The notes below the pieces were generated by a model that saw only the letters and a program-made list of their open reading frames with translations, was not told where the DNA came from and searched no databases. A program made the translations under genes and the position numbers. From a virus, in the IMG/VR virus record IMGVR_UViG_3300045988_074812, positions 1 to 12,769 of that record: 12,769 nt of DNA. One strand, 5' to 3'. Each line of letters begins with the position of its first letter. Within the stretch, counting starts at the first letter, position 1. Shown piece by piece: positions 1 through 12,769 of this stretch.

Positions 1-142
1 AGACAAACCTGTGAACAAATTGTTAACATTTCCCCAATCTGTTCATATTTTGTTCATAATTGCAAAACTGGCATGAATCTTGCTAGGCAACTATAACATT
101 AAATTGTCTGACAATATACCACAAAGTCTGTCACTTATTCTG

Positions 143-171
143 TTGACATATTAGTTCATATGAACTATAAT
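143..171 (+). promoter_or_regulatory. Consensus sigma-A/sigma-70 type early promoter inside left ITR
   Basis: TTGACA (143-148), 17-nt spacer, TATAAT (166-171). Both hexamers match consensus 6/6 with optimal spacing. It faces inward toward the SD-led ATG at 222. Confidence 0.8.
152..167. promoter_or_regulatory. Perfect 16-bp palindrome (candidate operator) in the spacer of the left ITR promoter
   Basis: TAGTTCATATGAACTA is a perfect palindrome. It fills the promoter spacer and overlaps the first two bases of the -10 hexamer, a geometry typical of a dimeric repressor site. The binding protein is unknown. Confidence 0.5.
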
Positions 172-221
172 AGACTTATCAAATGAAACAGCAACAGCCG
201 ACAAGGCGGGAGGGTGAAAAC

Positions 222-410
222 ATGAGAACATTAAAAGAAGTAACAAACGAGGAAATGAATGACATTGCTTCATACATGAATGATGAGCTTAGAGAATCTA
301 TACATTTTGACTTAGCACCTTGCACAAATGAGGAGTTTATCATCGCATATTGCAATGCTGATCCAACTTTTGAAGATCTTCTTAATGAAGAATTTCACAT
401 TGAATTATAG
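222..410 (+). CDS. Small, strongly acidic early protein (62 aa), function unknown; candidate DNA-mimic/anti-defence protein
   Basis: The ORF track gives 183..410. I place the start at ATG 222 because GGAGG (209-213) lies 8 nt upstream. ATG 183 has no SD and sits only a few nt from the predicted TSS. The protein has 16 D/E versus 3 K/R in 62 aa. It is the only convincing plus-strand gene and is followed directly by a strong terminator. Confidence 0.7.
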   Translation: MRTLKEVTNEEMNDIASYMNDELRESIHFDLAPCTNEEFIIAYCNADPTFEDLLNEEFHIEL

Positions 411-416
411 GAGGGT

Positions 417-458
417 AAAAGAGAGATAGCCCAGCGGATGCTGGGCTATCTCTCTTTT
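417..458. terminator. Bidirectional rho-independent terminator between convergent genes
   Basis: Perfect 15-bp stem GAGAGATAGCCCAGC (421-435) / GCTGGGCTATCTCTC (440-454) with 4-nt loop GGAT. It is flanked by AAAA (417-420) and TTTT (455-458), so a U-tract follows the hairpin on either strand. It sits between the 222..410 (+) gene and the last gene of the minus-strand operon. Confidence 0.85.
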
Positions 459-1713
459 ACATCGTAATTGAGCCCCTGTGAATCTGTACCTGTGTAACCT
501 CTGTCAAAGTCCGGTAATTGTGCTTGTCATCTGAGACATCATACAAGCTCAAATAGATATGCCGACCTCTGAAGTTAAGCTGTGCGGGGATATGATAAAA
601 GTCACTGCTAGACTTAACGATCACACTTGTTGGATAGCATGTATAGCCATTGTGATCTCCGATAAAAGAAGTTGAAAAAATACGCCCCAAGCGGTACTCA
701 GTGCCATCACATGTAAGTGTTCCGCTGTTTGGCAGGCAAACATAGTTACCCCAGATCAGAGTACTTGTATTATCATTGTAGGAACTTACAAATTGCCAAC
801 TTGATCCCGGAGTAGGTGCAAAGTCACCTGCTTCAAAATTTGCACTAACTTCATAAAATGATGGACTACACGCCCCTGTTTCTACAGCGGTCGCAAGATA
901 AGTAGCAAGCCTCTCCTGTCCGGTTGTGTTTGGGTGAAATCCATCAGAACCAAGGAACCCATCAGCATGGAGAATATAGTCTGACCCTGTCAGATACCGC
1001 CAATTCTTTCTCTGAGTGTTATAAACACTCTTTGCGATCTTTAGCCTATTTTGCACCATTGGATCATCCGTTCGATCAACGCTCCATGCTACCATGGCAG
1101 AAAATACTTTTGCGTTCGGAAATCTCACTTCTGCTGCTCCCATAAAAGCATTGATTGCATTTTCAATTTCTGAATAAGTTCCGAACTCATTAAATCCACC
1201 TACAACAAGGATCTGTTTGACCTCATCAGATGCTGGCACAGCATTTAAAAGCATAATGAATGAATTAGCAGCTGTTGAGAAAGATGCACCCCCATTTGCG
1301 GAAATGATTACATTATCAAGCCCTGTGTACTTGATAAAGTTTGTAGTCCATGGCTGCACATTACCATCCGGAGTATAACCAACGGTGTAACTGTCTCCGA
1401 TAATGATGGTTTTCCCGGAATGGTCAAAAAGCCCTTCTCTTTTTTGTAACTTTGTGATTTCAGCTGTATTTGTTCCTACTTGCTCTTTTAATGGTTCAAT
1501 CTGTTCGTTGATTACTTTTGTAGTAGCTTCATTTACTACTTTTCCGATCTCTCCATCATCCAGACTTTTCTGGATTGCATCATCAATCATGGTCTGGGCT
1601 GTGTCTTTTATGTGTGTCCATTCCTCATGATCTTTGTTGGCCTGTTTTCCAACTTTAAGCAACCAGTCTAAATTCATATCCTGCATAGAACTATGTGGGT
1701 AGTTAAAAAACAT
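457..1713 (-). CDS. Tail appendage / receptor-binding protein with SGNH (GDSL) esterase domain
   Basis: 418-aa ORF with GGAGG 8 nt before ATG 1713. SGNH blocks are visible: I IIIGDSYTVG (about 1381-1410), II NGGAS, III GGFNEF, V DGFHPNTTG. The N-terminal ~95 aa look helical/coiled-coil and the C-terminal ~140 aa look like a beta-rich, Cys-containing domain. It occupies the phi29 gp12 position, after connector and lower collar. Confidence 0.75.
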   Translation of the reverse strand: MFFNYPHSSMQDMNLDWLLKVGKQANKDHEEWTHIKDTAQTMIDDAIQKSLDDGEIGKVVNEATTKVINEQIEPLKEQVGTNTAEITKLQKREGLFDHSGKTIIIGDSYTVGYTPDGNVQPWTTNFIKYTGLDNVIISANGGASFSTAANSFIMLLNAVPASDEVKQILVVGGFNEFGTYSEIENAINAFMGAAEVRFPNAKVFSAMVAWSVDRTDDPMVQNRLKIAKSVYNTQRKNWRYLTGSDYILHADGFLGSDGFHPNTTGQERLATYLATAVETGACSPSFYEVSANFEAGDFAPTPGSSWQFVSSYNDNTSTLIWGNYVCLPNSGTLTCDGTEYRLGRIFSTSFIGDHNGYTCYPTSVIVKSSSDFYHIPAQLNFRGRHIYLSLYDVSDDKHNYRTLTEVTQVQIHRGSITM

Positions 1714-1726
1714 AATTCATTCCTCC

Positions 1727-2416
1727 TTAATAAATTAATAAAAGCAGATCCTGTGCAAAAAGACCTGTGCAGTAGTCAATAAAGCTTTGTTTTCTCAACT
1801 CAAGCTCCGACTGAATCATATTCTGTGACGTAGTAACTCCAATGTTGCCATGAATATGCCCGATATGCTTATTCTGCCCTGTCTCCCGGCTTGTCTCACC
1901 CTTGCCATACTCAAATGTATTTTTATTCTCACCAGAACTTTGTACTTTTGTACTGCCTCCATACTCTGTAGTTGTTTTTTCATTCGGGGAGTAGTTTGCA
2001 TCATTAAAAGCACTGACATCATTGGTAGCTGTATCTGCCCCAGAGTTGGTCGTAGTGGTTCCCTGTCTTGCTTCTGCCCTGTTTACATCTTGTCCGGAAG
2101 TCTGACTTGTTCGTGTCATGTCCGGGCTGTCTGTCCATTCTTCATGACGGTCATAGTTTTCAATCGGTTCATAATTCGTTAGTTCTAACACATTATAAAC
2201 CTTGTCAATGCTTGTTTTCCATTTCTGGCTCCATGCAGGAATAGCACTTTCATACATAAAATCCCAATCCGGGTATAATGGTTCACAATCCCCATAGGAC
2301 AGAAGCAAGCTATCGATAAAATTCTGCCTGTCTGCTGATTCTGGAAATTCCATTTTATCAAATAAAATGTCATTCCATTCATAAAGCCCTGCTATCGTAA
2401 CCTTATAAAGTGCCAT
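1727..2416 (-). CDS. Putative lower collar / tail tube adaptor protein (phi29 gp11 position)
   Basis: 229-aa ORF with SD GGGGGTGA upstream of ATG 2416 and a 14-nt overlap with the connector gene end. It lies directly downstream of the connector, as gp11 does in phi29. The N-terminal domain contains YEPIENYDRHEEW and the centre is S/T/G/N-rich. Function is assigned by synteny only. Confidence 0.5.
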   Translation of the reverse strand: MALYKVTIAGLYEWNDILFDKMEFPESADRQNFIDSLLLSYGDCEPLYPDWDFMYESAIPAWSQKWKTSIDKVYNVLELTNYEPIENYDRHEEWTDSPDMTRTSQTSGQDVNRAEARQGTTTTNSGADTATNDVSAFNDANYSPNEKTTTEYGGSTKVQSSGENKNTFEYGKGETSRETGQNKHIGHIHGNIGVTTSQNMIQSELELRKQSFIDYCTGLFAQDLLLLIY

Positions 2417-3323
2417 AACTTTTCACCCCCGCAGTTTCATAGTTTCTTATCTTGATTGACAAATTCATTTCCGGATACAGTCTATTTGTCGTGTCAACCC
2501 CTGCTTGCATGGTTTCAAGCCATGTTGTAAGCCGTGTCACGGATTCTGCATCATTTTTGCTTGTTTCAAGCACATTCAGGCGTTCTTTTTTATCAGATCC
2601 AACAGATGGAATACCGACCTCTGTGTCAAACTGATCCAGAAGCTTTTCAAAAACCTCAATCAGCTCTGGTGCAATAAAGTTCTGCTTCAAATCTTTGTTG
2701 AATGTCTCCCAGGCGTCCTGCTTGCTTCCTTGTCTATCTTCTGTTTTTATGGATACATCAAAAGCCTCAACTGGGTTACCAGCCTGTATACTGTCATAAA
2801 TTTTTTTCAACGTCTGAGCTGCTGCTTTGTTTTTCGCAGCAATCAGAAAAGCAAGTTTTGAGTTAAAAATATTCATGTCAAAAGCAGACGCAACAAGTGC
2901 CAGTTTGTAGCTGTAAAAGCCAATGATATCTCCAATCCCACAAAAAGTAGGCCTGAGATAGATGACAGAGCAGTCTTTCCCGATCTCCATATCCTCTATG
3001 TCAATTGTCGCATTGCTTGCATACGTATGTATGCTTGCTGTCGTTGGTTTAAAGTAAATATTGTAGCCTGTCAGCATTGGATACTGAGCAATCAGTCCAT
3101 AAAGATCTGTCTTTGTGATGCAAATATAACCCCCAAAAAGCAGGCAATATTTGAAGTAATCAATATCAATGTTTCCGTTGTATGTTATATCAAGGATAGA
3201 ACACACACGCTCATAAAGCATCCGATCGAACGTATCAGTATATAAGCTGTTAACTTTGATCCCGGATGGCTGGAAGTAATTAGTGCATATGTTTATTTTG
3301 TCAAAATTCATAGGTACCCACAT
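2403..3323 (-). CDS. Portal / upper collar connector protein (phi29 gp10-like)
   Basis: The ORF track gives 2403..3359. I prefer ATG 3323 (MWVPMNF...), which has GGAGG about 10 nt upstream and no overlap with the upstream gene. At about 306 aa it matches phi29 gp10 (about 309 aa). The segment GIPSVGSDKKERLNVLETSKNDAES resembles the gp10 stretch ...[21 protein letters not shown] as I remember it. Synteny is knob-connector-collar-appendage. Confidence 0.7.
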   Translation of the reverse strand: MWVPMNFDKINICTNYFQPSGIKVNSLYTDTFDRMLYERVCSILDITYNGNIDIDYFKYCLLFGGYICITKTDLYGLIAQYPMLTGYNIYFKPTTASIHTYASNATIDIEDMEIGKDCSVIYLRPTFCGIGDIIGFYSYKLALVASAFDMNIFNSKLAFLIAAKNKAAAQTLKKIYDSIQAGNPVEAFDVSIKTEDRQGSKQDAWETFNKDLKQNFIAPELIEVFEKLLDQFDTEVGIPSVGSDKKERLNVLETSKNDAESVTRLTTWLETMQAGVDTTNRLYPEMNLSIKIRNYETAGVKSYGTL

Positions 3324-3339
3324 GTTTTTCATCCCTCCT

Positions 3340-4683
3340 TTATTCAAAATAAAAACCATTATTCAAGTAACTATTCACCTGCTCTTGATCCCCCTCAAAT
3401 CCTGCAATCTGGATAGATGCATTACGGCACTTTACAAACCCACTCAGTGCAGAAATAGACCGGATAGTCCCGTCTATATAACCCTCACTTGTGCCATCTG
3501 GATCTATGCTTGTGCAGGCATAGCAGATACTGTTTGCATCCATGCTGTTGAGTATAGAGGAAATATTGCCAACTGTACCTACCATGTTGGGCTCTGGTGA
3601 AGTCACACTCTGAAAAGCACCTACCGTATTTGTGATAACCCCAATAGGGTTACCGGAAGCAAGGCTTGTGCCAACGTCTATTAAGTTGGTAGTAAGTTGA
3701 CCAATGTTAGTGGTGGCATATCCAATCTGTACCGGAACAGCAAGCTGACATTGAAAGTGAGCGTATTCATCTGTTCCAGAAGTTAGCCAAACATCAGCCA
3801 TGCCTGATACAGCATCAAAGTTATAAGTAGCTTTTAACTGACCCTTATGTGTCTTTGTTGGATTGATAGGGATAACACCCACAAATGGTAATTTGACAGC
3901 GTACTTTGAAAAACTAGCATTGTAATAGCGAAAATCTGTATCAGCATATAAGGGGTTGCCAAGGCTTAAATCATAAGAAAAAGTGCATGTTGCATCATTA
4001 ATTAATGCAGCAGTTACATTGCTGTCCCAGTAGCCAAGCTTGATATTATCGGCAATATTCAAAAATGAGCTTAACCGAAACGGCAGCCATTTTAGATCCA
4101 CGATATACTGAAATGGATTGAAAAGCAAACGTGTAAGTGCTGAGTCGATCACATCTGGGATGGATCCATAAGTGTACATAAATTCCATTAGATCATCTAA
4201 TTGGCTTCCTGTGACATAATAAGTGCTTATCCCATCCACTGAAATAGTCCGCAGCAGATAGTTTCTAGCATATCCATTCACAAATGTATTGATCGGCTGC
4301 CCTACGATCGTGGATTGACTTACCCAGTCATTCGTAGGAATATACATGGAATCATTTGCAAGCGTAGTCTGCTTGCTGGATCTCTCAATGAAACATGTAT
4401 AGTTGCCTATCTCTGTCCGGTAAGTTGCTAACACATCCTCACTCGCTGAAAGCTCAACCATGTCATTATTCAGTGAAACTGTTGAATTAATAAAATAGTA
4501 ATGGTCAGCCCACTTCAAATAGTTGTATTGCAAGGCATTATCTAATGATAATTTTAGCTTAAATACTGGATTTTGAAACGTGGTATTTGATTTTAAAAGA
4601 CAGGGGACGGTTGCCCCCTGTCCTGTCGGTCTTTTTGTACTGTTTTTTCGTTTGGAAAAATGGAATAAGATAATCTCTGTCAT
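3340..4683 (-). CDS. Tail knob / distal tube protein (phi29 gp9-like)
   Basis: The ORF track gives 3340..4725. I prefer ATG 4683, which overlaps the endolysin stop (ATGA), giving 447 aa. It lies immediately upstream of the connector, as gp9 does. The C-terminal GFVKCRNASIQIAGFEGDQEQVNSYLNNGFYFE resembles the remembered gp9 C-terminus ([33 protein letters not shown]). Confidence 0.55.
   Translation of the reverse strand: MTEIILFHFSKRKNSTKRPTGQGATVPCLLKSNTTFQNPVFKLKLSLDNALQYNYLKWADHYYFINSTVSLNNDMVELSASEDVLATYRTEIGNYTCFIERSSKQTTLANDSMYIPTNDWVSQSTIVGQPINTFVNGYARNYLLRTISVDGISTYYVTGSQLDDLMEFMYTYGSIPDVIDSALTRLLFNPFQYIVDLKWLPFRLSSFLNIADNIKLGYWDSNVTAALINDATCTFSYDLSLGNPLYADTDFRYYNASFSKYAVKLPFVGVIPINPTKTHKGQLKATYNFDAVSGMADVWLTSGTDEYAHFQCQLAVPVQIGYATTNIGQLTTNLIDVGTSLASGNPIGVITNTVGAFQSVTSPEPNMVGTVGNISSILNSMDANSICYACTSIDPDGTSEGYIDGTIRSISALSGFVKCRNASIQIAGFEGDQEQVNSYLNNGFYFE
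4591..4622 (-). terminator. Intragenic terminator-like hairpin (possible attenuator) near the 5' end of the tail-knob gene
   Basis: On the minus-strand RNA: GACAGGGGGC-AACC-GUCCCCUGUC (4622..4599). The stem is 10 bp including one G-U pair, with a tetraloop, and is followed by UUUUAAAA (4598..4591). It lies in codons ~21-31 of the tail-knob ORF, just after the lysis genes. Confidence 0.3.
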
Positions 4684-5330
4684 GATAAGTAAATATCTCC
4701 CTTTGCCGTGATTGCACATATCCAACCGGATGGAATCCTAACCCACGTTGCACTGGCTTCATCCTTTTTGACATCTTTTACCGTGACTGTGGTTCCTTTT
4801 TTCAGGCAGCCATCAGAATAAGCATGTTTCATGCCATCCCTTGTCAGCTGTGCATACTCTTTGATCTGGCCCCATATGCTATAACGTACATGTAAGTGAT
4901 CTATCATTGTAGTATAAGTTCCGCCAATTTCATAAGATATACTTTTTTCATCCCATACCCTGCGGATGCAGGATAAGTCAGACCTACGACTTACAAGGCT
5001 TTTGACTACCCCAACCCCAGGATTGTATTGAGTATTTTTTCTGCCACCCCTGCTTTCAATCATATATCCGTATCCTACGAAAATAGCACAATGAGTTACT
5101 GGAGTGCCGAAAAAAAGAAAATCACCTACTTTTTGCTCTCCAATTGGAATCCTTGTTCCAAGCTTTGAATAGCTTGATGCCGTCAGTCTTCCAACATTTG
5201 ACCCTGCTTTTTTCTGGATCCAGTAAAGCAATCCGGAACAGTCAAGTCCCTGTGTGGGGTTTGAACCACCCCACACATATCTAACTCCAAGTAATTCCTT
5301 TGCATTTTCAATAAGTTCGTTCGCTGTCAT
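4680..5330 (-). CDS. Endolysin: NlpC/P60 endopeptidase with C-terminal SH3b-like wall-binding domain
   Basis: 216 aa. The NlpC/P60 signature is YVWGGSNPTQGLDCSGLLYW (catalytic Cys, about 5231-5250) with GDFLFFG...THCAIFVGYGYMIES (His). The C-terminal GTTVTVKDVKKDEASATWVRIPSGWICAI...IYLS fits an SH3b pattern. It lies directly downstream of the holin candidate. Confidence 0.9.
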   Translation of the reverse strand: MTANELIENAKELLGVRYVWGGSNPTQGLDCSGLLYWIQKKAGSNVGRLTASSYSKLGTRIPIGEQKVGDFLFFGTPVTHCAIFVGYGYMIESRGGRKNTQYNPGVGVVKSLVSRRSDLSCIRRVWDEKSISYEIGGTYTTMIDHLHVRYSIWGQIKEYAQLTRDGMKHAYSDGCLKKGTTVTVKDVKKDEASATWVRIPSGWICAITAKGDIYLS

Positions 5331-5337
5331 TTTACAC

Positions 5338-5562
5338 CTACTTTCCTAAGTGTTCAATTAATGAGTTCATTTTTTCAACCGCAAGTGTGTTATTTTTGAT
5401 AACTTCAGAAAGCGTATCAACTTCATTTTTGTGTTCCTCGTTGAGTTTGTCAACTCGTGAATTTGTCTGGTCATATATATACTTTACGAAGTATGCCATG
5501 ACACAGCAGCAAACGATTGGAAAAGCATAGTTGCCTAAAATAGTTAAGAATGTATCCATCAT
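5338..5562 (-). CDS. Putative holin (BhlA/UviB-like architecture)
   Basis: 74 aa with one N-terminal transmembrane segment (FLTILGNYAFPIVCCCVMAYFV) and a charged helical C-terminal tail, as in BhlA/UviB holin-like proteins of Firmicutes. It lies immediately upstream of the endolysin, and its ATGA overlaps the preceding gene. Confidence 0.6.
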   Translation of the reverse strand: MMDTFLTILGNYAFPIVCCCVMAYFVKYIYDQTNSRVDKLNEEHKNEVDTLSEVIKNNTLAVEKMNSLIEHLGK

Positions 5563-5864
5563 GCTGATACCCCCTCTTCAAAATAGTCATTATTAATTGG
5601 GGCAAGAGGCACTGTATCAACTAAAACTGCCCCAAAACCAAATTGAAAAACTGAAAAATTTGATAATTTCGGAAACCCATAATAACTATCAAATTTTAAT
5701 TCTAAACCGTTACTCCTATTAAAGTAAGCGATTACATTTCCATTTAGTTCTAATGTTGAACTTTGCTCTGATGTGCTTGTGCATATAATTCTGCGAACTC
5801 CATAATCACCATTCAGACTAAAAACCTGCCCTTGTTCATCTGCCTGCATGTTGAAAAAAAACAT
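5559..5864 (-). CDS. Hypothetical protein in the head module (101 aa)
   Basis: ATG 5864 overlaps the capsid gene stop (TAATG), with GGAGG 7 nt upstream. No motif recognised. Its position after the capsid gene allows a decoration or minor head protein, but that is a guess. Confidence 0.6.
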   Translation of the reverse strand: MFFFNMQADEQGQVFSLNGDYGVRRIICTSTSEQSSTLELNGNVIAYFNRSNGLELKFDSYYGFPKLSNFSVFQFGFGAVLVDTVPLAPINNDYFEEGVSA

Positions 5865-7060
5865 TATACTCCCTCCCCCAGGACATACAGAATTGCATTG
5901 TGTGTAAAGTTATTCCACGCATTGAATCTGTAGTGATCAAAGATATTGTAATAACCACCGGCTGCATTGAATGGCGTAGCAGCTGAATACATCCACTGAT
6001 TATTAACTCCCATTGCCCTACGGTCATAAAGTAAACCGAGTACATAAGGAATACTTACCGCTGTAGTGGCTGTCTTTGAAGCTCCGTCAGCATCAATGAT
6101 GTTCGGCTTAATATTGATTGCAGGGCTGTCGAACTCCTGCCAGCCATTTACCAACTCTTTGTCTGCGATTTTAAGTTGCTCATCGCTAAACACTGTCGGG
6201 AATACTTGTGTTTCAGAATCAATCCAGAAATCTGTGTACATGAGCAGTTTCTGATTCTCTGGTCGGGTAAATCTCAAGATATCTTTACCAGTGAGATTCA
6301 TATGATATTTTGTCGTACGATCCTGCATTTTTTTCGAATCTTTTTTGATTCTTGCAACCACAAAAGCCATGAAGTCTCTGTGATGCTCCGGGCTTAACAG
6401 CTGCTTTCTTGTCAGTTCTGTACCATAGGCTGTGTTATACTCTTTTACTAAATCCACCTCATTTGTTCCCAGTGAGGAAATCCCAGCCATAAAGTTAAGC
6501 ACTGTCAATCTGCGCTTTGCTTCATTTCTGGATTCAATGTCATTATAGTAAGCAGTCATATAGCTACTTACAAACATCAGAAACTCTGCTTCGTTGGAGA
6601 AAGCAAGAGCCAGCTGATCACGGAAACGCGTGATATGCGACTGCAAAACTTTGCTGCCATAGAATTTCAGCTCCACTACTTTTGGCGCATTGATCTTGTA
6701 CATATCGACCGACTGACCATCGGCAAGCTGATTTTCATTCAAGTCTGTATTCCAATCCTGTGATGCTTCTGCATCTAACGGAAGTGAAATGATCTCACGT
6801 GTGATAGCTCCCCATCGCTCATTATTCTCAATGATGGATCGGAACACTCCGGATCTGTATTTTTCCATTTCAAAATAGGTACGACCACACCACTGACTAA
6901 GTGCTTTCAACGTTGGTTCTACACCTGTCCGTAGCATTGTCTCTCCGACAGCCACAAAAGAACTTGTATCTAGCGCTTTGATATTCTCCCGTCCGGTAGC
7001 CATCTTGTACAGATCATTAATGATTAAATAGGCATCCTGTACGACTAAACTATTTGCCAT
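5864..7060 (-). CDS. Major capsid protein (candidate, phi29 gp8 position)
   Basis: 398-aa ORF with strong SD AAGGGGGT 8 nt before ATG 7060. It lies directly downstream of the scaffold-like gene. Its size and position are typical of small-podovirus capsid proteins. No database comparison was possible. Confidence 0.7.
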   Translation of the reverse strand: MANSLVVQDAYLIINDLYKMATGRENIKALDTSSFVAVGETMLRTGVEPTLKALSQWCGRTYFEMEKYRSGVFRSIIENNERWGAITREIISLPLDAEASQDWNTDLNENQLADGQSVDMYKINAPKVVELKFYGSKVLQSHITRFRDQLALAFSNEAEFLMFVSSYMTAYYNDIESRNEAKRRLTVLNFMAGISSLGTNEVDLVKEYNTAYGTELTRKQLLSPEHHRDFMAFVVARIKKDSKKMQDRTTKYHMNLTGKDILRFTRPENQKLLMYTDFWIDSETQVFPTVFSDEQLKIADKELVNGWQEFDSPAINIKPNIIDADGASKTATTAVSIPYVLGLLYDRRAMGVNNQWMYSAATPFNAAGGYYNIFDHYRFNAWNNFTHNAILYVLGEGV

Positions 7061-7074
7061 TTTCTATTACCCCC

Positions 7075-7410
7075 TTAATTCATGAGTTTCATGAGATCTT
7101 CTGCCACGTTATCCGATGTGCGTGGTGTTGATCCAGCTTTTCCAGATGCAGACAGGTTCCCAGCCTGTAACGTAGCGGTCAAAGTATTGATTGCTGTCAG
7201 CAAGGCTGCATTGGTTGCATCCTGTCCCGTCTGTGCTGTCAGATTCAGGGGAGTATTTGCAACCTGCTGTCCCAGATTCTGAATCTGTTCTGTACCCTGT
7301 GGGCTTGTGATCTGATTAAGCCCAGCCATGTTCTGAGCATTCAGGATTCCCATGATTTCATTTTTAGAAAAACCAAGCTTTCCAAGTTCTAAAATTTCAT
7401 TTACTTTCAT
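7075..7410 (-). CDS. Scaffolding-like protein (111 aa from the SD-led ATG; ORF stays open up to TTG 7554)
   Basis: The ORF track gives 7075..7554, but that start is TTG without an SD. ATG 7410 (MKVNEILELG...) has GGAG 9 nt upstream and lies downstream of a near-consensus promoter (7526-7554). The sequence is Q/N/T/A/L-rich and looks helical, and it lies directly upstream of the capsid gene, like phi29 gp7. The start is ambiguous. Confidence 0.5.
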   Translation of the reverse strand: MKVNEILELGKLGFSKNEIMGILNAQNMAGLNQITSPQGTEQIQNLGQQVANTPLNLTAQTGQDATNAALLTAINTLTATLQAGNLSASGKAGSTPRTSDNVAEDLMKLMN

Positions 7411-7430
7411 TTTTTCTATCTCCTTTTCTG

Positions 7431-7519
7431 CCGGAAGTGAAAAATTAAAATAGGTCAACGCTTCCGGGTTATCATCCCACGGCATCCGCTTCCGGCGGTC
7501 GATGTAGCCACGTTGACCT
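7431..7519 (-). promoter_or_regulatory. GC-rich structured leader candidate upstream of the scaffold/capsid genes
   Basis: There is a 9-bp inverted repeat AGGTCAACG (7452-7460) / CGTTGACCT (7511-7519). CGCTTCCGG is a direct repeat (7459-7467 and 7487-7495). CCGGAAG (7431-7437) is complementary to both CTTCCGG copies. The core 7452-7519 is 41/68 G+C in an AT-rich genome. The arm order on the mRNA is compatible with an H-type pseudoknot just 5' of the SD. Confidence 0.35.
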
Positions 7520-7525
7520 GTCTTT

Positions 7526-7554
7526 AATATATAATTTTTAAAATAGTTTGTCAA
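7526..7554 (-). promoter_or_regulatory. Near-consensus internal promoter (candidate late/structural promoter)
   Basis: On the minus strand: TTGACA (7554..7549), 17-nt spacer, TATATT (7531..7526; 5/6 to TATAAT). It lies in the last codons of the ATPase gene. The predicted TSS is about 7518-7519, exactly at the first arm of the GC-rich repeat element. Confidence 0.5.
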
Positions 7555-8584
7555 TATAGAATTTTACAGAAATATTCTGGTAGCTGATTCTATTTGTCAG
7601 ACGATAGCTGTCAATCCAGCTATAAAAGCATCTAAACTGATCTTTGCCATGCTGACTATCTTCAAATACATCCTTGCAGGATCCCGATATATGATCCGAA
7701 ACATACAAGTGTGCTTTTGACTTGTGTTCGTAAATAGCCACTTTTCCAATCACACAAATAAGCTTGTATTGGCGTATATCTTCTGATCGGATAGCAGAAA
7801 CATCATCATATGCAAATTCATTTGATAAAGCCATCTTTGCAAAGTCAGTATTGCCCGATAATGCACGATACAAAGCAGTATCTTTTTTCTTTTCTGAAAT
7901 CGGGGAATCATTAATGAGAACCAAGATGATTCCTCTCTCTTTTAGCATGGAAAACTCCTGCTTATTCTTTTTCATTCGCTCCAAGATTGGCAGCAGTCCG
8001 AAAGCTTGCACAATTGCATTATCTAAGGTGTTGGAGTTGGAAGCAAGCCACCAGCGGAATGGCTTCTTTCCCTGCAACTCCCTATTTGCTGAGATTGTTT
8101 CAACAGCATTTAAAAAAGCATCATCCTCCCCACTGATTGACTTAGCAATCTTTTCCGGAATAAATTCATCATAAATCCCCTCCGAAAAATCAGATCCGGA
8201 GAAACCACGGTTGTTATGCATTGAGGTGAGACAGAATGCCTCACCCCTATAAACTTCTTCATCCTCTGTTTGCTCCATGATCTTAATCCGTCCATACTCA
8301 CCTCTGGGCTTTTCAAAATGAAAAAACCTGTTCAGATCTTTATTTATGTCCAGCCATGGATCAAACTCCGGAAGAAATACTTTTGTCAGCTGCTCTTTTG
8401 TACGCCTCATATAGATGATCTTCTCATTTTTGGAAAAAACATCATTGATGAAGTGCTGGAATATTCCATACGTTTTCCCAGTTCTACGCGCTCCAATGAT
8501 GAAAATAAAGTTAATTTTATTTTTATCGGCAAGCTGGACGATCCTTGGAACATCCAGCCAACCATTTATATCATAGATGTTCAT
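7538..8584 (-). CDS. DNA encapsidation (packaging) ATPase, phi29 gp16-type
   Basis: The ORF track gives 7538..8632. I prefer ATG 8584 (MNIYDINGW...), which has GGTGGA 8 nt upstream and forms a TAATG overlap with the preceding stop, giving 348 aa. Walker A is IIGARRTGKT (about 8471-8494) and Walker B is GIYDEFIPEK. NFIFIIGARRTGKTYG...EKIIYMRRTKEQL parallels remembered gp16 NFVIGARGIGKSYA...EQFIYVRRYKPEL. There is no terminase nuclease domain. Confidence 0.9.
   Translation of the reverse strand: MNIYDINGWLDVPRIVQLADKNKINFIFIIGARRTGKTYGIFQHFINDVFSKNEKIIYMRRTKEQLTKVFLPEFDPWLDINKDLNRFFHFEKPRGEYGRIKIMEQTEDEEVYRGEAFCLTSMHNNRGFSGSDFSEGIYDEFIPEKIAKSISGEDDAFLNAVETISANRELQGKKPFRWWLASNSNTLDNAIVQAFGLLPILERMKKNKQEFSMLKERGIILVLINDSPISEKKKDTALYRALSGNTDFAKMALSNEFAYDDVSAIRSEDIRQYKLICVIGKVAIYEHKSKAHLYVSDHISGSCKDVFEDSQHGKDQFRCFYSWIDSYRLTNRISYQNISVKFYIDKLF
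7587..7614 (-). promoter_or_regulatory. Second promoter-like element upstream of the first
   Basis: On the minus strand: TTGACA (7614..7609), 16-nt spacer, TAGAAT (7592..7587; 5/6). It lies about 60 bp upstream of the 7554 element, inside the ATPase 3' end. Confidence 0.3.
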
Positions 8585-8883
8585 TATTGAAATCCACCCC
8601 CATAGGATGTCGGCTGCGAATTCTGATTGCATTCATTGTATTTTTTGATGCAAGCATCCTGCAAAAGCTTAGTCCATTCCTTATCAACTATATAAATGGA
8701 ATTATAGTATTTACCATCTTTTCCTTTTTTACTTGGGTATGACAGGAAAAGACCCTCTTTTCCCTCAACCAGCGTAAGCCCTTTAATTACAAGTGTTCCA
8801 TCCAGTTCCAGATCAACAAAAGCTTTTGTTTTTGAGTTTCCATTATAAGGTTTGCATGTGATTTTTACATTTGATTTTAACAT
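8584..8883 (-). CDS. SpoVG-family nucleic-acid-binding protein homologue
   Basis: 99 aa with GGAG upstream of ATG 8883. KAFVDLELDGTLVIKGLTLVEGKEGLFLSYPSKKGKDGKY aligns by eye with B. subtilis SpoVG [40 protein letters not shown]. This includes the GLF-x3-PSK-x3-DG signature, and the overall length is similar. Confidence 0.8.
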   Translation of the reverse strand: MLKSNVKITCKPYNGNSKTKAFVDLELDGTLVIKGLTLVEGKEGLFLSYPSKKGKDGKYYNSIYIVDKEWTKLLQDACIKKYNECNQNSQPTSYGGGFQ

Positions 8884-8884
8884 A

Positions 8885-9022
8885 TTAGTTTATCTCCTTT
8901 ACATCAATTCTAATAATTTTCCCCACCTTGTAAGCTACGATACTAATTTCATCATCCTCGTATGTTACTTTTCGCAGGCTGCTTGTTCGCAATGTTTCAT
9001 AGATCTCTGACATATCAATCAA
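8885..9022 (-). CDS. Small hypothetical protein (about 45 aa)
   Basis: The ORF track gives 8885..9085. GGAGG (9035..9031) lies 8 nt upstream of TTG 9022, followed by ATG 9013. The longer version has no SD and overlaps the 37-aa ORF. No motif recognised. Confidence 0.5.
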   Translation of the reverse strand: MIDMSEIYETLRTSSLRKVTYEDDEISIVAYKVGKIIRIDVKEIN

Positions 9023-9035
9023 TTTTCTCACCTCC

Positions 9036-9149
9036 TTAATCACCCAACAATAACCATACTTGACAGGTTGCAAACATGCAAGCAAAAGTGATGCAAGTCC
9101 AGAAAAGGGTGCTTAAATCTTCTTTGTTATCATTCCAGAACTTTTTCAT
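9036..9149 (-). CDS. 37-aa single-pass membrane microprotein (not in the supplied ORF track)
   Basis: My manual translation of the minus strand from ATG 9149 gives MKKFWNDNKEDLSTLFWTCITFACMFATCQVWLLLGD, ending at TAA 9038..9036. GGAGG (9165..9161) lies 8 nt upstream. The protein has a charged N-terminus and a ~22-aa hydrophobic segment. Its stop overlaps the SD of the next gene. Confidence 0.55.
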   Translation of the reverse strand: MKKFWNDNKEDLSTLFWTCITFACMFATCQVWLLLGD

Positions 9150-9204
9150 ATTTTACACCTCCTGCTTATACTTTAACTTATTTATGTTACAAAACTATTA
9201 CAGA

Positions 9205-9213
9205 TTTATAACA
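9205..9213 (-). promoter_or_regulatory. Possible extended -10 promoter in the AT-rich gap after the polymerase gene
   Basis: On the minus strand: TGtTATAAA (9213..9205) within the 70-bp non-coding gap 9150-9219. There is no good -35. This is weak evidence. Confidence 0.2.
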
Positions 9214-9219
9214 TTTATT

Positions 9220-11343
9220 CTAACTATATACGGTGTCTTCCATCTCAAAAGGCAGTGGTAATCCTGTTTCTTTATCATAAGGAATCGTGTGATCCAGCTC
9301 ATATTCTGTATCACTCAAGCGGATAGCACAGCCATATTCAATCCTGCATCCATCTATAACAATTTCATTAATTCCATCATTGAATAGATACTCTGTTTTC
9401 ATCTTCCATTTTGGATCCTGCCAATCATTCACCCTGCGGTAGTTCCTGCGGAACGTCAAGTCATTTTTGAAAATAAATCCTTTTCTAAAATTGGTTATAT
9501 CATCGTTAAGACAATAAATCCCCTCTTTTGGAACACCAGCAACTGTCAGATGCAAGCTTGCATCTTTTTTCAGTCGGTAGCAATACCGCTTGCTACCCAT
9601 CGTTTTAAATTCTGAATATAATCCATCAAACTCAGCAATTCCCAACCGGAAAGTTTTTTCCTTATACTCTACTACACCGATTTTTCTTTTTTCTGACATT
9701 TCAATTACAGACTGATTAAACTCATTCAGTTTATCATGATCCCAGTCTGTACCTTTTACAGAATCTGTGTCTGAGTATAACCACACCCGGCAGCAGGAAC
9801 CCAGCCGGAAAAGATAAGCTTGTGCATAAGCTGTAATCCATACTCCCCACTGGTACGGCATGAAGCTGTTTTTGTTCCGGTAGAACTTTTCAAGCTCTTT
9901 TTCCCTGTCCTCTGGTTCTTTTGCCTCCCACTCTCCGGATTCCATCAACTCAGTACATAAGATCTGGATGATACGCTGCACAGTCATTCCATACATTCCA
10001 TTAAGCTCCCCTTTTGAGATCATGTAGTTTGCTTCATCCAAATCCTTTAATGTGCATTTTTTAAAAAACAATTCCATCAAATAGCCTGTGAACCACTCCG
10101 GCAAGTAGTCTTTTGTAGCTCTCATGACCTTTGACACATCCGCCCAGTCATAATCATAGCTTGACAGGATTACATCTAAATCTGGATCCGTAAATGGATA
10201 GATGACAAGATCAGCGTTGACGATCTTTCCATTATCCAAATTGTCATAAAACTGTTCCTTTTTGCTTTTAGCTTCGGGAAAAACACAAACTTTTGCTTTT
10301 GAAAAAGCCAGCGGTGGCATGGGGCAGTCTTTTTTCAGTCTCAGATTCTTTAATCTGATATAGCCAGAAAAAGCATAATCATCTTTTAATTCCATAATGT
10401 CTTTTAATGTTATATTATTTGTATAACAAAAATTCGACATTGGAAACTTACAATAGCACATCCATGCAATATATGAACTTGTAAAGTCATAACACTCAAC
10501 AGGGTCTTTTATTAATTGATTCACATAATACCTGTTTGCATGGGTGTAGCCACCATGATAACAGTCAAGCATCTGATCATACTGCTCTAAGGTCAGAGCC
10601 ATTTTCTCAAATTGCTTTCTCCATTTCTTGTCTTTTCTTGCTCTCCTGCGGGCGTTCGTCCGGATAAATCCCGTATTGGTCAGCGGACAGTTCGCCACGT
10701 TAAATCCTCGCTGATCTATGTATTTGCGTAATGCCTTGCATAGACTGATTGTATCCGTACAGACATAGGCTATTTCTTTTGCTGTACGTGAACTTGCTGG
10801 CGTTCGGAATTTCTTATAGTCCCATGTGCCGACTGCTTTTTCAGTCGTTCCCATGTCTTTGCACAGTTTCTCTAATGATCGCTGTGTCAAGATAAGGCTG
10901 TCCCGAAATTCAACTCCTTGCCCTGTCCATTTCATGAAGATATACTTATGAGTTTTACTAGCAAGTGATTTGTCTGGCATTCCCCATTTTCGGAAAAAGT
11001 GATTACGAAGAAATACATAGTCATATGGAAAGTTATGCACATAAAAGCGTACAAGGTGGCTATCGTCAGCATGTAAAGTTGTGCAAATCCTGTCGATCGT
11101 ATCAATCAGATCAGAAACATGGTTGCCATAAATACAGCAATCATCCTCTATCGTGATTGTCCAATCCGTGACAAAGCCAATGTTTTTGTTAAGATAGACA
11201 AAAGTCTCCGTATCAACAGTTATAATTTTTTCATAAACTCCTAAATAATGCCCTGCATTGGATCGCCGGATAAAATCACCATTGAACAGTCGCATATAAT
11301 CGTAGTTCTTAAAATAAATAACTGAATATCCTGAGACTACCAT
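9220..11343 (-). CDS. Family-B DNA polymerase, protein-primed type (phi29 gp2-like)
   Basis: 707 aa with GGAGG 6 nt before ATG 11343. Exonuclease motifs: ExoI TVDTETF (about 11201-11220), ExoII HNFPYDYVF, ExoIII YVCTDTISL. Polymerase motifs: A YDFTSSYIAWM (compare phi29 DVNSLYPAQM), B KGELNGMYGM, C LYSDTDSVKG (about 9762-9779), and KxY in GSKRYCY. The long A-to-B spacing is consistent with a TPR1-type insertion. Confidence 0.95.
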   Translation of the reverse strand: MVVSGYSVIYFKNYDYMRLFNGDFIRRSNAGHYLGVYEKIITVDTETFVYLNKNIGFVTDWTITIEDDCCIYGNHVSDLIDTIDRICTTLHADDSHLVRFYVHNFPYDYVFLRNHFFRKWGMPDKSLASKTHKYIFMKWTGQGVEFRDSLILTQRSLEKLCKDMGTTEKAVGTWDYKKFRTPASSRTAKEIAYVCTDTISLCKALRKYIDQRGFNVANCPLTNTGFIRTNARRRARKDKKWRKQFEKMALTLEQYDQMLDCYHGGYTHANRYYVNQLIKDPVECYDFTSSYIAWMCYCKFPMSNFCYTNNITLKDIMELKDDYAFSGYIRLKNLRLKKDCPMPPLAFSKAKVCVFPEAKSKKEQFYDNLDNGKIVNADLVIYPFTDPDLDVILSSYDYDWADVSKVMRATKDYLPEWFTGYLMELFFKKCTLKDLDEANYMISKGELNGMYGMTVQRIIQILCTELMESGEWEAKEPEDREKELEKFYRNKNSFMPYQWGVWITAYAQAYLFRLGSCCRVWLYSDTDSVKGTDWDHDKLNEFNQSVIEMSEKRKIGVVEYKEKTFRLGIAEFDGLYSEFKTMGSKRYCYRLKKDASLHLTVAGVPKEGIYCLNDDITNFRKGFIFKNDLTFRRNYRRVNDWQDPKWKMKTEYLFNDGINEIVIDGCRIEYGCAIRLSDTEYELDHTIPYDKETGLPLPFEMEDTVYS

Positions 11344-11353
11344 GAGTTACCTC

Positions 11354-11977
11354 CTAATATGGTCTATACTTCAAAGCTTCTGATTCACCAGAGAACCCAA
11401 GCCGTTTAGCTATGACATCAGCCATTTCTTCGTCTGTACGCTCACGGAATTGCTCTAAATCCTCTATTATCTTTTTTACTGTAGAAGTATCAAGTTTATG
11501 ACTGATGATTCGCATTGTTTGCTTACTATCGTAGAATAATTGCATCCACTTCCAGACCTCAGACTTAAAAAATAACTTCATTTCCTCTTTTGATTTGAAA
11601 TTAATTCCATATTCTCTGCTGAGGGTCTTTTGGCGTTGATCTATGATCTCATGCCAGCCCTGCACAGTGCTGCTCTTTTCTTTCAGCACTTTTTGTATGG
11701 CCTTAACCTGAGTTCTAGGCAGACCTTTATATTTTTCATTATCCAGATTTTCCGGTATCGTTGATCGTCCTGGAAAAAATCTTGCAAGCAAATCTTGATA
11801 GTCTGCATAAGCTCCTCCAACTTCTGAATCAAAACCTTTTGCTTTTAACCTACGCATACGCTGATTCAGACGTTTTGCAAGTTGTCTGCGGAGCTGTAAA
11901 GCTTCCAGAGTAGTTAGCATTTTTGGGTTGACGTTCAACCCTTTTGACGTGGTTGGTATTTTAGGATTCTTTGGCAT
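11354..11977 (-). CDS. Candidate terminal protein (207 aa)
   Basis: It lies immediately upstream of, and co-oriented with, the protein-primed polymerase, as gp3-gp2 do in phi29. SD AGGGGGTGA precedes ATG 11977. The basic helical N-terminus (LQLRRQLAKRLNQRMRRLKAKGFD) recalls the phi29 TP N-terminal region (ARLVKNTKAKIARTKKKYGVD, from memory). The assignment is positional, with no verified homology. Confidence 0.5.
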   Translation of the reverse strand: MPKNPKIPTTSKGLNVNPKMLTTLEALQLRRQLAKRLNQRMRRLKAKGFDSEVGGAYADYQDLLARFFPGRSTIPENLDNEKYKGLPRTQVKAIQKVLKEKSSTVQGWHEIIDQRQKTLSREYGINFKSKEEMKLFFKSEVWKWMQLFYDSKQTMRIISHKLDTSTVKKIIEDLEQFRERTDEEMADVIAKRLGFSGESEALKYRPY

Positions 11978-12335
11978 TATATATCACCCCCTTCATATAC
12001 TCATAAATGCTATCGTATTCCCTAGTTGTTACGCGAAAATCTAATTCTGGTTTTTTAATGATCAAATAAAGATTCTCACATAGAACTCTTGCATCGTTAA
12101 TAGTATCATGAACATGAAATGAGGCAATAAAACGATTTGTTTCAACATTTATTAGAGACTTTGAACGATTGTACATTGTTTTTCGTGCAAGTCTCCTTAT
12201 GACGATTATTACTTCTGGATAGTTTAATTCTATCATGTCTGACCTGTCAAGATCTGGACTAGATTTCTTAAGAATCACTACAGGGGCTTTTACCCCGGTA
12301 TTTGTGTATTTAATTTTTGTATATTTTGATTTCAT
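11961..12335 (-). CDS. Hypothetical early protein (124 aa, basic N-terminus)
   Basis: SD GAGGAGG lies 8 nt before ATG 12335, which abuts the stop of the upstream gene. The 3' end overlaps the next gene by 17 nt. No motif recognised. Confidence 0.7.
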   Translation of the reverse strand: MKSKYTKIKYTNTGVKAPVVILKKSSPDLDRSDMIELNYPEVIIVIRRLARKTMYNRSKSLINVETNRFIASFHVHDTINDARVLCENLYLIIKKPELDFRVTTREYDSIYEYMKGVIYNAKES

Positions 12336-12548
12336 TTACTGGTCCTCCTCAAAATCAATGTTATTATTTCTTTCAATACAGTCTATTGAGTTAATTTTGC
12401 TACCGTCAAAAACACTAGGTACTGGATTATCAAACGGAATAGCTTTGCATGTTTGGTAAACCTTGTCATCTTTCAAAATCATGCTTAATGCTTTAACCGA
12501 CATGCTGTTCCCGTTTTTGTAATTGATTTTATAAGTATTGTCTTTCAT
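12336..12548 (-). CDS. Hypothetical early protein (70 aa), first gene of the long minus-strand operon
   Basis: The ORF track gives 12336..12587. The preferred start, ATG 12548..12546, uses the ITR-borne GGAGG, mirroring the left end. Only the start codon and one further base lie inside the ITR. Confidence 0.7.
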   Translation of the reverse strand: MKDNTYKINYKNGNSMSVKALSMILKDDKVYQTCKAIPFDNPVPSVFDGSKINSIDCIERNNNIDFEEDQ

Positions 12549-12598
12549 GTTTTCACCCTCCCGCCTTGTCGGCTGTTGCTGTTTCATTTGATAAGTCT

Positions 12599-12627
12599 AT
12601 TATAGTTCATATGAACTAATATGTCAA
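12599..12627 (-). promoter_or_regulatory. Consensus early promoter inside right ITR (mirror of 143-171)
   Basis: On the minus strand: TTGACA (12627..12622), 17 nt, TATAAT (12604..12599). It is identical to the left copy and heads the operon that runs from 12548 to 457. Confidence 0.8.
12603..12618. promoter_or_regulatory. Perfect 16-bp palindrome (candidate operator) in the right ITR promoter
   Basis: TAGTTCATATGAACTA, the mirror copy of 152-167. Confidence 0.5.
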
Positions 12628-12769
12628 CAGAATAAGTGACAGACTTTGTGGTATATTGTCAGACAATTTAATGTTATAGTTGCCTAGCAAGATTCATGCC
12701 AGTTTTGCAATTATGAACAAAATATGAACAGATTGGGGAAATGTTAACAATTTGTTCACAGGTTTGTCT

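Follow-up and report, generated by a model that had tools for sequence, protein, structure and literature searches.

Why should the terminal repeat of a linear phage genome end at a start codon? The question is raised by a 12,769-nucleotide (nt) stretch of viral DNA, positions 1-12,769 of the IMG/VR record IMGVR_UViG_3300045988_074812, which is referred to here as the window. It is a complete or nearly complete linear genome of a small uncultured phi29-like gut phage, and its two ends carry a 225-nt inverted terminal repeat (ITR). An earlier note on this DNA described each ITR copy as a complete expression cassette with a promoter, a leader, a Shine-Dalgarno (SD) sequence and an ATG, so that one unit faces two unrelated inward genes. 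We found all of these elements where the note had placed them, and the unit was complete in both arms (Table 1). Taken as a whole, the repeat seems to have two parts, a replication origin and an early-expression module, with arms that are homogenised against each other and swappable gene cassettes behind them. We consider this reading fairly likely, and weigh several others against it below. The right-hand end, from which the minus-strand replication genes are read, is called proximal, and the left-hand end, which holds only a single rightward gene (222-410), is called distal.

Table 1. Positions of the terminal repeat, its parts and the neighbouring genes in the window
Feature	Positions	Strand	Remarks
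Left ITR	1-225	+	225 nt, 100% complementary to 12545-12769
Right ITR	12545-12769	-	Inner 79 nt confirmed in independent contig L079
Outer repeat part	1-135	.	Presumed protein-primed replication origin, from the PolB/phi29-like gene set
Inverted GTGAACAA	11-18	.	Within presumed origin
GTTCATA direct repeats	41-47 and 52-58	.	11 nt apart
GTCTGNCA repeats	106-113 and 126-133	.	Both upstream of -35
Promoter TTGACA-17-TATAAT	143-171	+	Sigma-A/sigma-70-type, inward; 12/12 match
Perfect 16-bp palindrome TAGTTCAT/ATGAACTA	152-167	+	In promoter spacer; inverted GTTCATA pair; candidate operator
Predicted 5' leader	178-221	+	~44 nt; predicted transcription start ~A178
SD GGAGG	209-213	+	8-nt spacer to ATG
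Start codon ATG	222-224	+	Last element of repeat
AcrIC5-family protein, 62 aa	222-410	+	Pfam PF22147; distal accessory cassette
Stop codon overlapping orphan SD, TAGGAGGGTAAAAG	408-421	+	Apparent remnant of joint to a ~91-aa gene absent here; joints compared in 16 relatives
Bidirectional intrinsic terminator	415-460	.	Perfect 21-bp stem; closes left cassette and long minus-strand gene series
Family-B DNA polymerase	9220-11343	-	Pfam DNA_pol_B_2, PHROG 1907
Putative terminal protein, 207 aa	11354-11977	-	By synteny only
124-aa protein	11961-12335	-	Conserved early gene downstream of right-arm promoter
70-aa protein	12336-12548	-	Variable proximal cassette; first gene of early replication operon
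Right-arm SD GGAGG	12557-12561	-	Mirror of 209-213
Right-arm promoter copy	12599-12627	-	Mirror of 143-171; 12/12 match

Identity between the arms had been said to stop at position 225, and the arms indeed diverge at 226 (ATGA/GAACA on the left and ATGA/AAGAC on the right). Base 225 itself says little, because nearly all first genes in this clade carry an A at +4. With the first start codon 222 nt in from each tip, a promoter for either first gene has no place outside the repeat. The two ITR copies were the only perfect (12/12) matches to TTGACA-17-TATAAT in the window, and no further one was found upstream of the polymerase operon. Three sites had at most one mismatch, compared with 0.25 expected from shuffled sequences. 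No significant RNA structure was found in the leader region, 178-260, in the context of either arm (z = -1.35 and -0.64). A structured leader or riboswitch at these positions was rejected, as there was no significant fold and the Rfam match was a hairpin-only one on the terminator.

The heptamer GTTCATA occurs four times in each repeat, and eight of its ten copies in the window fall in the two ITRs, compared with 2.4 expected for the whole window. This motif and GTCTGNCA hint at a phage-encoded regulator. No helix-turn-helix (HTH) protein was detected among the window proteins with Pfam or PHROG. An 11-nt unit, CTGTTCATATTT(T), at window positions 38-62 stands two or three times in tandem, depending on the relative, which resembles the copy-number variation of iterons and lies in the presumed origin.

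The window is probably clipped at both of its tips. The contig ends of about 25 relatives reach exactly 10 nt past window position 1 and read AAACTTGGCA. At the distal end of one relative (L033), an Illumina adapter tail, CTTCCGATCT, is joined directly to AAACTTGGC and marks the physical end of the DNA. These two observations imply that the true repeat is probably about 235 nt long and that the outermost 10 nt are missing here. Both tips are cut off at exactly the same base, as if one graph node had been used twice, and one might suspect that the assembler collapsed or duplicated a repeat, so that the perfect ITR with its boundary would be an artefact. Two relatives, L004 and L025, also have implausibly long 100% inverted repeats that resemble foldbacks. 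However, the same architecture was recovered in about 20 separately assembled genomes with different gene pairs, and the arms of GenBank MT836115 have diverged yet still reach the SD. An independent MEGAHIT contig (L079; ENA k141_3075, 12,623 nt) is identical to the window; it spans the complete left arm and, on the right, the innermost 79 nt of the repeat, and so reproduces both inner junctions. For many contig ends AAACTTGGC is the common stopping point, one of them with the adapter, and a collapse cannot make an inner branch point. We give the artefact next to no weight. The repeats of L004 (557 nt) and L025 (at least 1000 nt) are not homologous to the ITR of the clade and are probably foldback assembly artefacts or defective snap-back genomes; both were left out of the comparison.

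A second ATG, at position 183 inside the repeat, is in frame with ATG222. If translation began there, the repeat would encode a common 13-residue N-terminal peptide, MKQQQPTRREGEN, on both proteins. Mechanically called open reading frames (ORFs) do start at 183 (75 and 83 amino acids, aa), and the JGI call for the left gene (75 aa) agrees with this. In the alignment of 60 ends described below, however, ATG183 was found only in the window's own two arms. It has no upstream SD and lies about 5 nt from the predicted transcription start, whereas ATG222 has a canonical GGAGG-8 nt-ATG arrangement. Other gene callers mostly gave 62 aa and 63-70 aa for the two families. The start at 183 was rejected because it is not conserved, and we find it scarcely credible; on this comparison, ATG222 is the start.

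Relatives were collected by a polymerase search of IMG/VR, which returned 51 near-complete genomes at 92-95% amino acid identity, one at 75%, two at 68% and several at about 30%. We aligned 60 contig ends with the window repeat and surveyed the promoter in 64 homologous ends. Homology reached positions ~213-225 at almost all of the 60 aligned ends. Column conservation was 0.83-0.93 over positions 1-210, 0.75 over 211-225 and 0.5-0.6 past the ATG. TTGACA was present in 62 of the 64 ends and TATAAT in 53, the remainder having one mismatch; the spacer was 17 nt long in 61. Among the 60 ends with a detected SD, 56 had GGAGG.

In all genomes with both arms at the inner boundary (15, the window and 14 relatives), the two arms cease to be identical somewhere from the SD to about 12 nt past the start codon. 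The break lies just past the ATG in the window and L038 (ATGA), L037 (ATGAAA) and L011 (ATG+9). It falls within the spacer between SD and ATG in L017, L026, L027, L030, L042 and L043, and directly past GGAGG(G) in L001, L003 and L024. The two genomes at 68% polymerase identity (L053/L054) have the same layout: the terminus reads AAACTAGGC, promoter and SD are present, and the arms diverge right past the SD. The earlier note had held that a repeat ending upstream of the promoter in relatives would speak against its proposal. We found that the repeat ends at the SD/ATG in the 15 genomes, in the 68% lineage and in two genomes with enlarged repeats (L012 and L029, see below). On these alignments, a repeat ending at the SD/ATG is a clade-level trait. 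Relatives at about 28-30% do not have this layout; the 104-nt repeat of L059 ends upstream of its promoter, and that of L064 ends before the -10.

The promoter-like sequence might instead be mainly an origin or protein-binding element, with an incidental hexamer match and first genes that are expressed in some other way. The four GTTCATA copies per ITR, with an inverted pair placed exactly in the promoter spacer, would suit such an element, and the whole ITR is about 90% conserved, so conservation alone does not set the hexamers apart. Against it, the hexamer pair is perfect (12/12) at 17-nt spacing, where 0.25 sites are expected at one mismatch or fewer. The hexamers are nearly invariant over the 64 ends while the centre of the spacer varies; in the palindrome, the half-sites are kept and the centre is variable. 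In addition, there is no other DNA upstream of either first gene, and homologous promoters occur at the same place in the phages HM2, Cp-1 and asccphi28. We consider this alternative very improbable.

The note had also proposed end-to-end homogenisation of the arms, and the comparison of relatives bears this out. Compared as far as the SD, the two arms of one genome were 99.5-100% identical in 17 of 19 genomes, whereas the median between genomes was 87%, and in most genomes the nearest neighbour of an arm was its own partner. These values indicate that the arms evolve in concert. Moreover, the spacer between SD and ATG appears sometimes to track the opposite arm and not the gene it precedes. 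In front of the conserved 124-144-aa gene it reads AACATG in L011, L017 and L026, and ACTATG in L039, whose distal arm also has ACTATG. Similarly, a gene of about 91 aa usually has ACTATG, and has AACATG in L011, whose proximal arm is AACATG. The 70-aa gene of the window has the spacer type typical of the AcrIC5-like gene, and its homologue in MT836115 has a different spacer. The data fit conversion tracts that would run inward from the tips and halt wherever homology gives out, at points that vary. For protein-primed replicons, panhandle formation or another process that restores homology has been proposed (PMC11886824), and a conversion mechanism of this kind presumably acts here.

What stands behind the repeat is variable. 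First-gene families were defined from SD-anchored starts; clustering from the first Met falsely joins two families by their ITR-encoded extensions. The first-gene families behind the same module number at least 11 and are unrelated; one of them (FAM3) was found at either genome end. The proximal slot holds zero or one variable gene, followed by the conserved 124-144-aa gene, the putative terminal protein and the polymerase. In the distal slot there are zero to three small genes, usually with the ~91-aa family last, and then the terminator. In the proximal slot of L038, and also of L008 and L013, a 231-255-aa protein with a PAPS-reductase domain is encoded directly behind the ITR module.

For most accessory ORFs the end reads TAG/GAGG, a stop codon that overlaps the following gene's SD, and a few overlap stop and start as ATGA. 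A cassette is thus, judging from these junctions, a unit that runs from its own ATG to the next SD. Two relatives have enlarged ITRs. In L012 the repeat is 457/459 nt long, with 99.1% identical arms and an AcrIC5-like gene at both ends, and in L029 it is 334 nt long and has grown by one cassette; both end at the next SD/ATG joint. In the window, comparison with relatives indicates that the usual ~91-aa gene was lost exactly at such a joint, leaving the orphan TAGGAGGGTAAAAG. The coincidence of repeat boundary and start codon to which the note drew attention is therefore real and conserved across the clade, but it is not specific to the ITR. By this comparison the boundary is the first in a series of modular SD/ATG joints and no special property of the repeat. 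It seems to fall at a start codon because the accessory genes are exchanged as modules with SD/ATG joints.

Two relatives have unusual arrangements near an end. In L019, the 124-aa gene and the N-terminal region of the terminal protein (234-695 at the head) recur at the distal end (54-515) in a copy with 81% identity. This copy appears to be joined to FAM1-like sequence and is possibly an old, diverged ITR expansion. L081 (ENA ERZ19650874, 4679 nt) encodes an identical AcrIC5-like protein and matches window positions 38-460. Its positions 1-174 are unrelated sequence, joined at the GTTCATA repeat upstream of position 38, and had no match among the sequences compared; L081 may be a chimera or an unknown rearrangement.

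The distal cassette of the window is a candidate anti-CRISPR (Acr) gene. Its 62-aa product matched PF22147 (E = 3.2e-9, 37.2 bits, cut-off 27), the diverged homologue in L012 scored 37.5 bits, also above the cut-off, and the domain is precomputed on most homologues in the clade. On this profile evidence the protein is a member of the AcrIC5 family, and anti-CRISPR activity may be expected of it. It is acidic, with an isoelectric point of 4.05 and 16 acidic against 3 basic residues. The AlphaFold2 model (pLDDT 93.5) had AcrIC5 7yhr as its top PDB match, a weak one (E = 1.7, TM-score 0.50/0.52, 32% identity over 38 columns), and the pairwise phmmer match to 7yhr was also weak (E = 0.59). AcrIC5 has been described as a small acidic inhibitor that sits in the DNA-binding site (PMC10478522), and its orthologues are known from gut Firmicutes and Actinobacteria (PMC7913775). 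The gene is present in 8 of about 50 genomes. The gene in the right-hand slot encodes a 70-aa protein whose homologues are confined to this phage clade and were mostly called at 63-70 aa, consistent with a start equivalent to ATG222. Both flanking ORFs are under purifying selection, with dN/dS values (nonsynonymous to synonymous substitution rates) of about 0.2 on the left and about 0.08 on the right, the latter against L001; the comparison with L012 is not valid owing to an indel. Therefore, both are real genes.

The note had suggested selection for identical expression from both termini. Such selection is not required, since two relatives, L006 and L021, appear to be without a distal promoter or gene. 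Only the proximal promoter copy might be needed, for the terminal protein and the polymerase. The distal copy would then be a by-product of homogenisation that 'moron-like' genes came to use later, with no selection for symmetric expression. Besides these two genomes, the variable content of the distal slot (zero to three genes) agrees with this, and the replication operon has no alternative strong promoter. Nevertheless, more than 40 genomes retain a distal gene attached directly to the module SD, and the distal genes are under purifying selection. The bidirectional terminator behind the cassette is strong (-41.2 and -38.5 kcal/mol; z = -8.9 and -10.2) and insulates it, and the same layout is kept at 68% polymerase identity. 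We regard the by-product explanation as unlikely, and it differs from the two-part repeat mostly in evolutionary emphasis.

The two-part repeat could work as follows. The outer ~130 nt would be the origin for protein-primed replication, with the terminal AAA and the iterated GTTCATA and GTCTGNCA. The inner ~95 nt would be a fixed early-expression module made up of a consensus promoter for the host sigma-A, an unstructured leader and a strong SD, up to the attached start codon. Host RNA polymerase would start inward transcription at both tips once the DNA enters the cell. At the proximal tip, the module would drive the variable first gene, the 124-aa protein, the putative terminal protein and the polymerase. 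The distal copy would drive a short accessory array of zero to three genes insulated by the strong bidirectional terminator, which in the window would consist of the AcrIC5-family anti-CRISPR candidate only. The arms would be kept identical by panhandle annealing or recombination between the ends, with conversion proceeding inward until homology is lost at the SD/ATG. The cassettes would be swapped as ATG-to-stop modules, with the stop typically overlapping the next SD (TAG/GAGG).

Several observations weigh against this scheme. In L006, the distal arm stops right past the -10 and runs into the terminator, and in L021 it is only 117 nt long and is joined to the 3' end of a FAM1-like gene. These ends are apparent natural deletions of the distal module; either the module is dispensable or the contigs are chimeric. 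Homogenisation is not universal, as the arms of MT836115 (L001) are only about 88-94% identical. Repeat collapse in de Bruijn graphs could account for part of the 100% arm identity, though not for the inner branch point. The AcrIC5 link comes from the profile match, the pairwise and fold matches being weak. Finally, the other cassette families had no Pfam or PHROG match except PAPS_reduct in the 255-aa gene of L038.

How far is this arrangement known from other phages? The note had treated expression signals in an ITR as a departure from the usual view of such repeats as origins. This part does not stand, because inward promoters embedded in the ITR are known in Cp-1, asccphi28 and the Clostridium phage HM2. 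The Streptococcus phage Cp-1 (Z47794) is protein-primed and phi29-like and has a terminal AAA, as the window's relatives do. Its annotated ITR is 236 bp, and homology of 93-100% continues to about nt 352. Two tandem inward TTGACA-17-TATAAT promoters lie in this homology at both ends and lead into different first genes, orf1 and orfa, with the ribosome-binding site and ATG at mirror positions 376 and 375. In contrast to the window, the inner part is imperfect and homology stops about 8 nt past the second -10, at about the transcription start, so that leader and SD are separate for the two ends. Neither variable cassettes nor anti-defence cargo are documented for Cp-1, and its polymerase is too distant for tblastn at E<=1e-10.

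HM2 (LT600745) is the nearest cultured relative by polymerase (31.8%). It carries an inward TTGACA-17-(TG)GATAAT at 141-169 in an ITR of about 170 nt, almost the same distance from the tip as in the window, and its first SD-led genes start 197 and 203 nt from the ends. Here homology ends about 6 nt past the -10, and the leader, SD and ATG lie outside the repeat. The record of the Lactococcus phage asccphi28 (EU438902) has, by its depositors' annotation, a putative inward promoter at each end within the 577-bp ITR (P2 and P7), and the first ORFs start 18-37 nt beyond the repeat. Unlike the window, asccphi28 has a much longer ITR with outward promoters and terminators as well, and the SD and ATG are outside the perfect repeat. 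No promoter-like site was detected within the repeats of PRD1 (110 nt) and Astrid (84 nt). The private leader and SD of each end in Cp-1, HM2 and asccphi28 are not a feature of the present clade, in which the window and about 20 relatives carry the leader and SD, often with the ATG, in the repeat.

The ITR of phi29 has only 6 bp (AAAGTA), too short to duplicate the terminal promoters, and each end is under its own regulation, unlike in the window. The phi29 promoter C2 is an inward early promoter near the genome tip, beside the replication origin, and is repressed by the origin-binding protein p6 (PMC11476376). Another likeness is offered by the acr-aca operons of Pseudomonas phages and mobile elements, in which small and highly variable acr genes stand behind one strong early promoter at a fixed position (PMC7913775). 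The cassette of the window differs in that a single gene is followed by a terminator and not by aca; no Aca-type HTH repressor gene was found among the window proteins by Pfam or PHROGs. The promoter also differs, being part of the presumed replication-origin repeat and duplicated at both ends.

The ITRs of adenoviruses and poxviruses are homogenised between the ends and can grow or shrink; they carry transcription signals in adenoviruses and whole accessory or host-interaction genes in poxviruses. The growth of the ITR by one cassette in L012 and L029 is comparable to this, as a likeness in principle and not as homology, since these are eukaryotic viruses with unrelated proteins and signals. 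Literature searches on ITR-embedded phage promoters or on anti-CRISPRs adjoining ITRs gave nothing specific. In summary, an inward early promoter inside the terminal repeat is a recurrent and annotated feature of long-ITR phi29-like phages. The differences here are that the perfect repeat takes in leader and SD completely, as far as the ATG, that this is conserved across a large uncultured gut clade, and that it serves interchangeable cassettes, one of which encodes a member of an anti-CRISPR family.

The rest of the genome is of the phi29-like, protein-primed podophage type by Pfam and PHROG. The minus strand encodes a family-B protein-priming DNA polymerase (DNA_pol_B_2, E = 5.7e-10; PHROG 1907, E = 2.3e-49), and Phi29_MCP, Phage_connector and Podovirus_Gp16 (the packaging ATPase) were each above the Pfam cut-off. 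A SpoVG-like protein, an NlpC/P60 lysin and a tail protein with a GDSL domain are also encoded there. As in phi29-like phages, the genome is linear with ITRs and a reiterated terminal base, the physical ends of the relatives reading AAACTTGGC. The 207-aa ORF upstream of the polymerase had no family match in Pfam or PHROG. No packaging RNA (pRNA) was matched in Rfam at E<=1 anywhere in the window, which is a weak negative as pRNAs diverge fast. The nearest deposited record is MT836115, an unannotated human faecal scaffold with 88% nucleotide identity. In a search of phage records, the polymerases of cultured phages had at most about 32% identity, the closest being those of Clostridium HM2 and Amedibacillus AD70P2/P3, and a search of genome collections gave one contig of a metagenome-assembled genome at 27%.

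On the minus strand, the only terminator-like match reached from the ITR was at 8204-8177, beyond the polymerase stop. The note had described a single right-hand operon of about 12 kb, which is probably subdivided by internal promoters at ~7526-7614. Two near-consensus promoters, TTGACA-16-TAGAAT and TTGACA-17-TATATT, lie on the minus strand there, ahead of the structural genes. The first of them has the 8-mer GTCTGACA in its spacer, the same as at ITR positions 106-113, and GTCTGNCA recurs in the spacer of the near-consensus promoter at 7614-7587 (-). The SpoVG-family protein (99 aa, 8584-8883 on the minus strand, Pfam E = 5.5e-16), whose gene lies between those of the polymerase and the packaging ATPase, is a possible DNA-binding regulator. 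After the polymerase gene, a 37-aa hydrophobic ORF with a strong AGGAGG SD (9036-9149, minus strand) fills an apparent non-coding gap; with this small SD-led ORF there, an RNA gene at 9086-9219 was rejected.

As promoter-bearing terminal repeats exist in Cp-1, HM2 and asccphi28, current understanding is not overturned. A further idea, which we regard as possible but doubtful, is that the repeat is a self-homogenising, duplicated 'landing pad'. The fixed promoter, leader and SD at both tips would capture, swap and sometimes duplicate small anti-defence cassettes, through recombination or panhandle-primed copying at SD/ATG microhomology. If so, this would be a terminal, recombinase-free analogue of the integron cassette array or of poxvirus ITR gene expansion. 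Counter-defence would be expressed at once from whichever end arrived in the cell first, and new anti-defence proteins would be encoded by most of the cassette families that are as yet uncharacterised (FAM1, FAM2, FAM3 and others).

The 225-bp element is a compact candidate part, combining a putative origin and an expression module, for protein-primed orthogonal replicons in Firmicutes. The position directly past the repeat is a sequence-defined search site for anti-CRISPR and other anti-defence proteins in uncultured gut phages, and at least ten families of unknown function are located there. The clade is also a natural data set for ITR homogenisation and for the growth of ITRs by whole genes. 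For these phages, it seems that one terminal element of about 235 bp in a genome of about 13 kb would combine a replication origin, an immediate-early promoter and a translation-initiation site, and may thus serve as a stable socket for fast-changing accessory genes.

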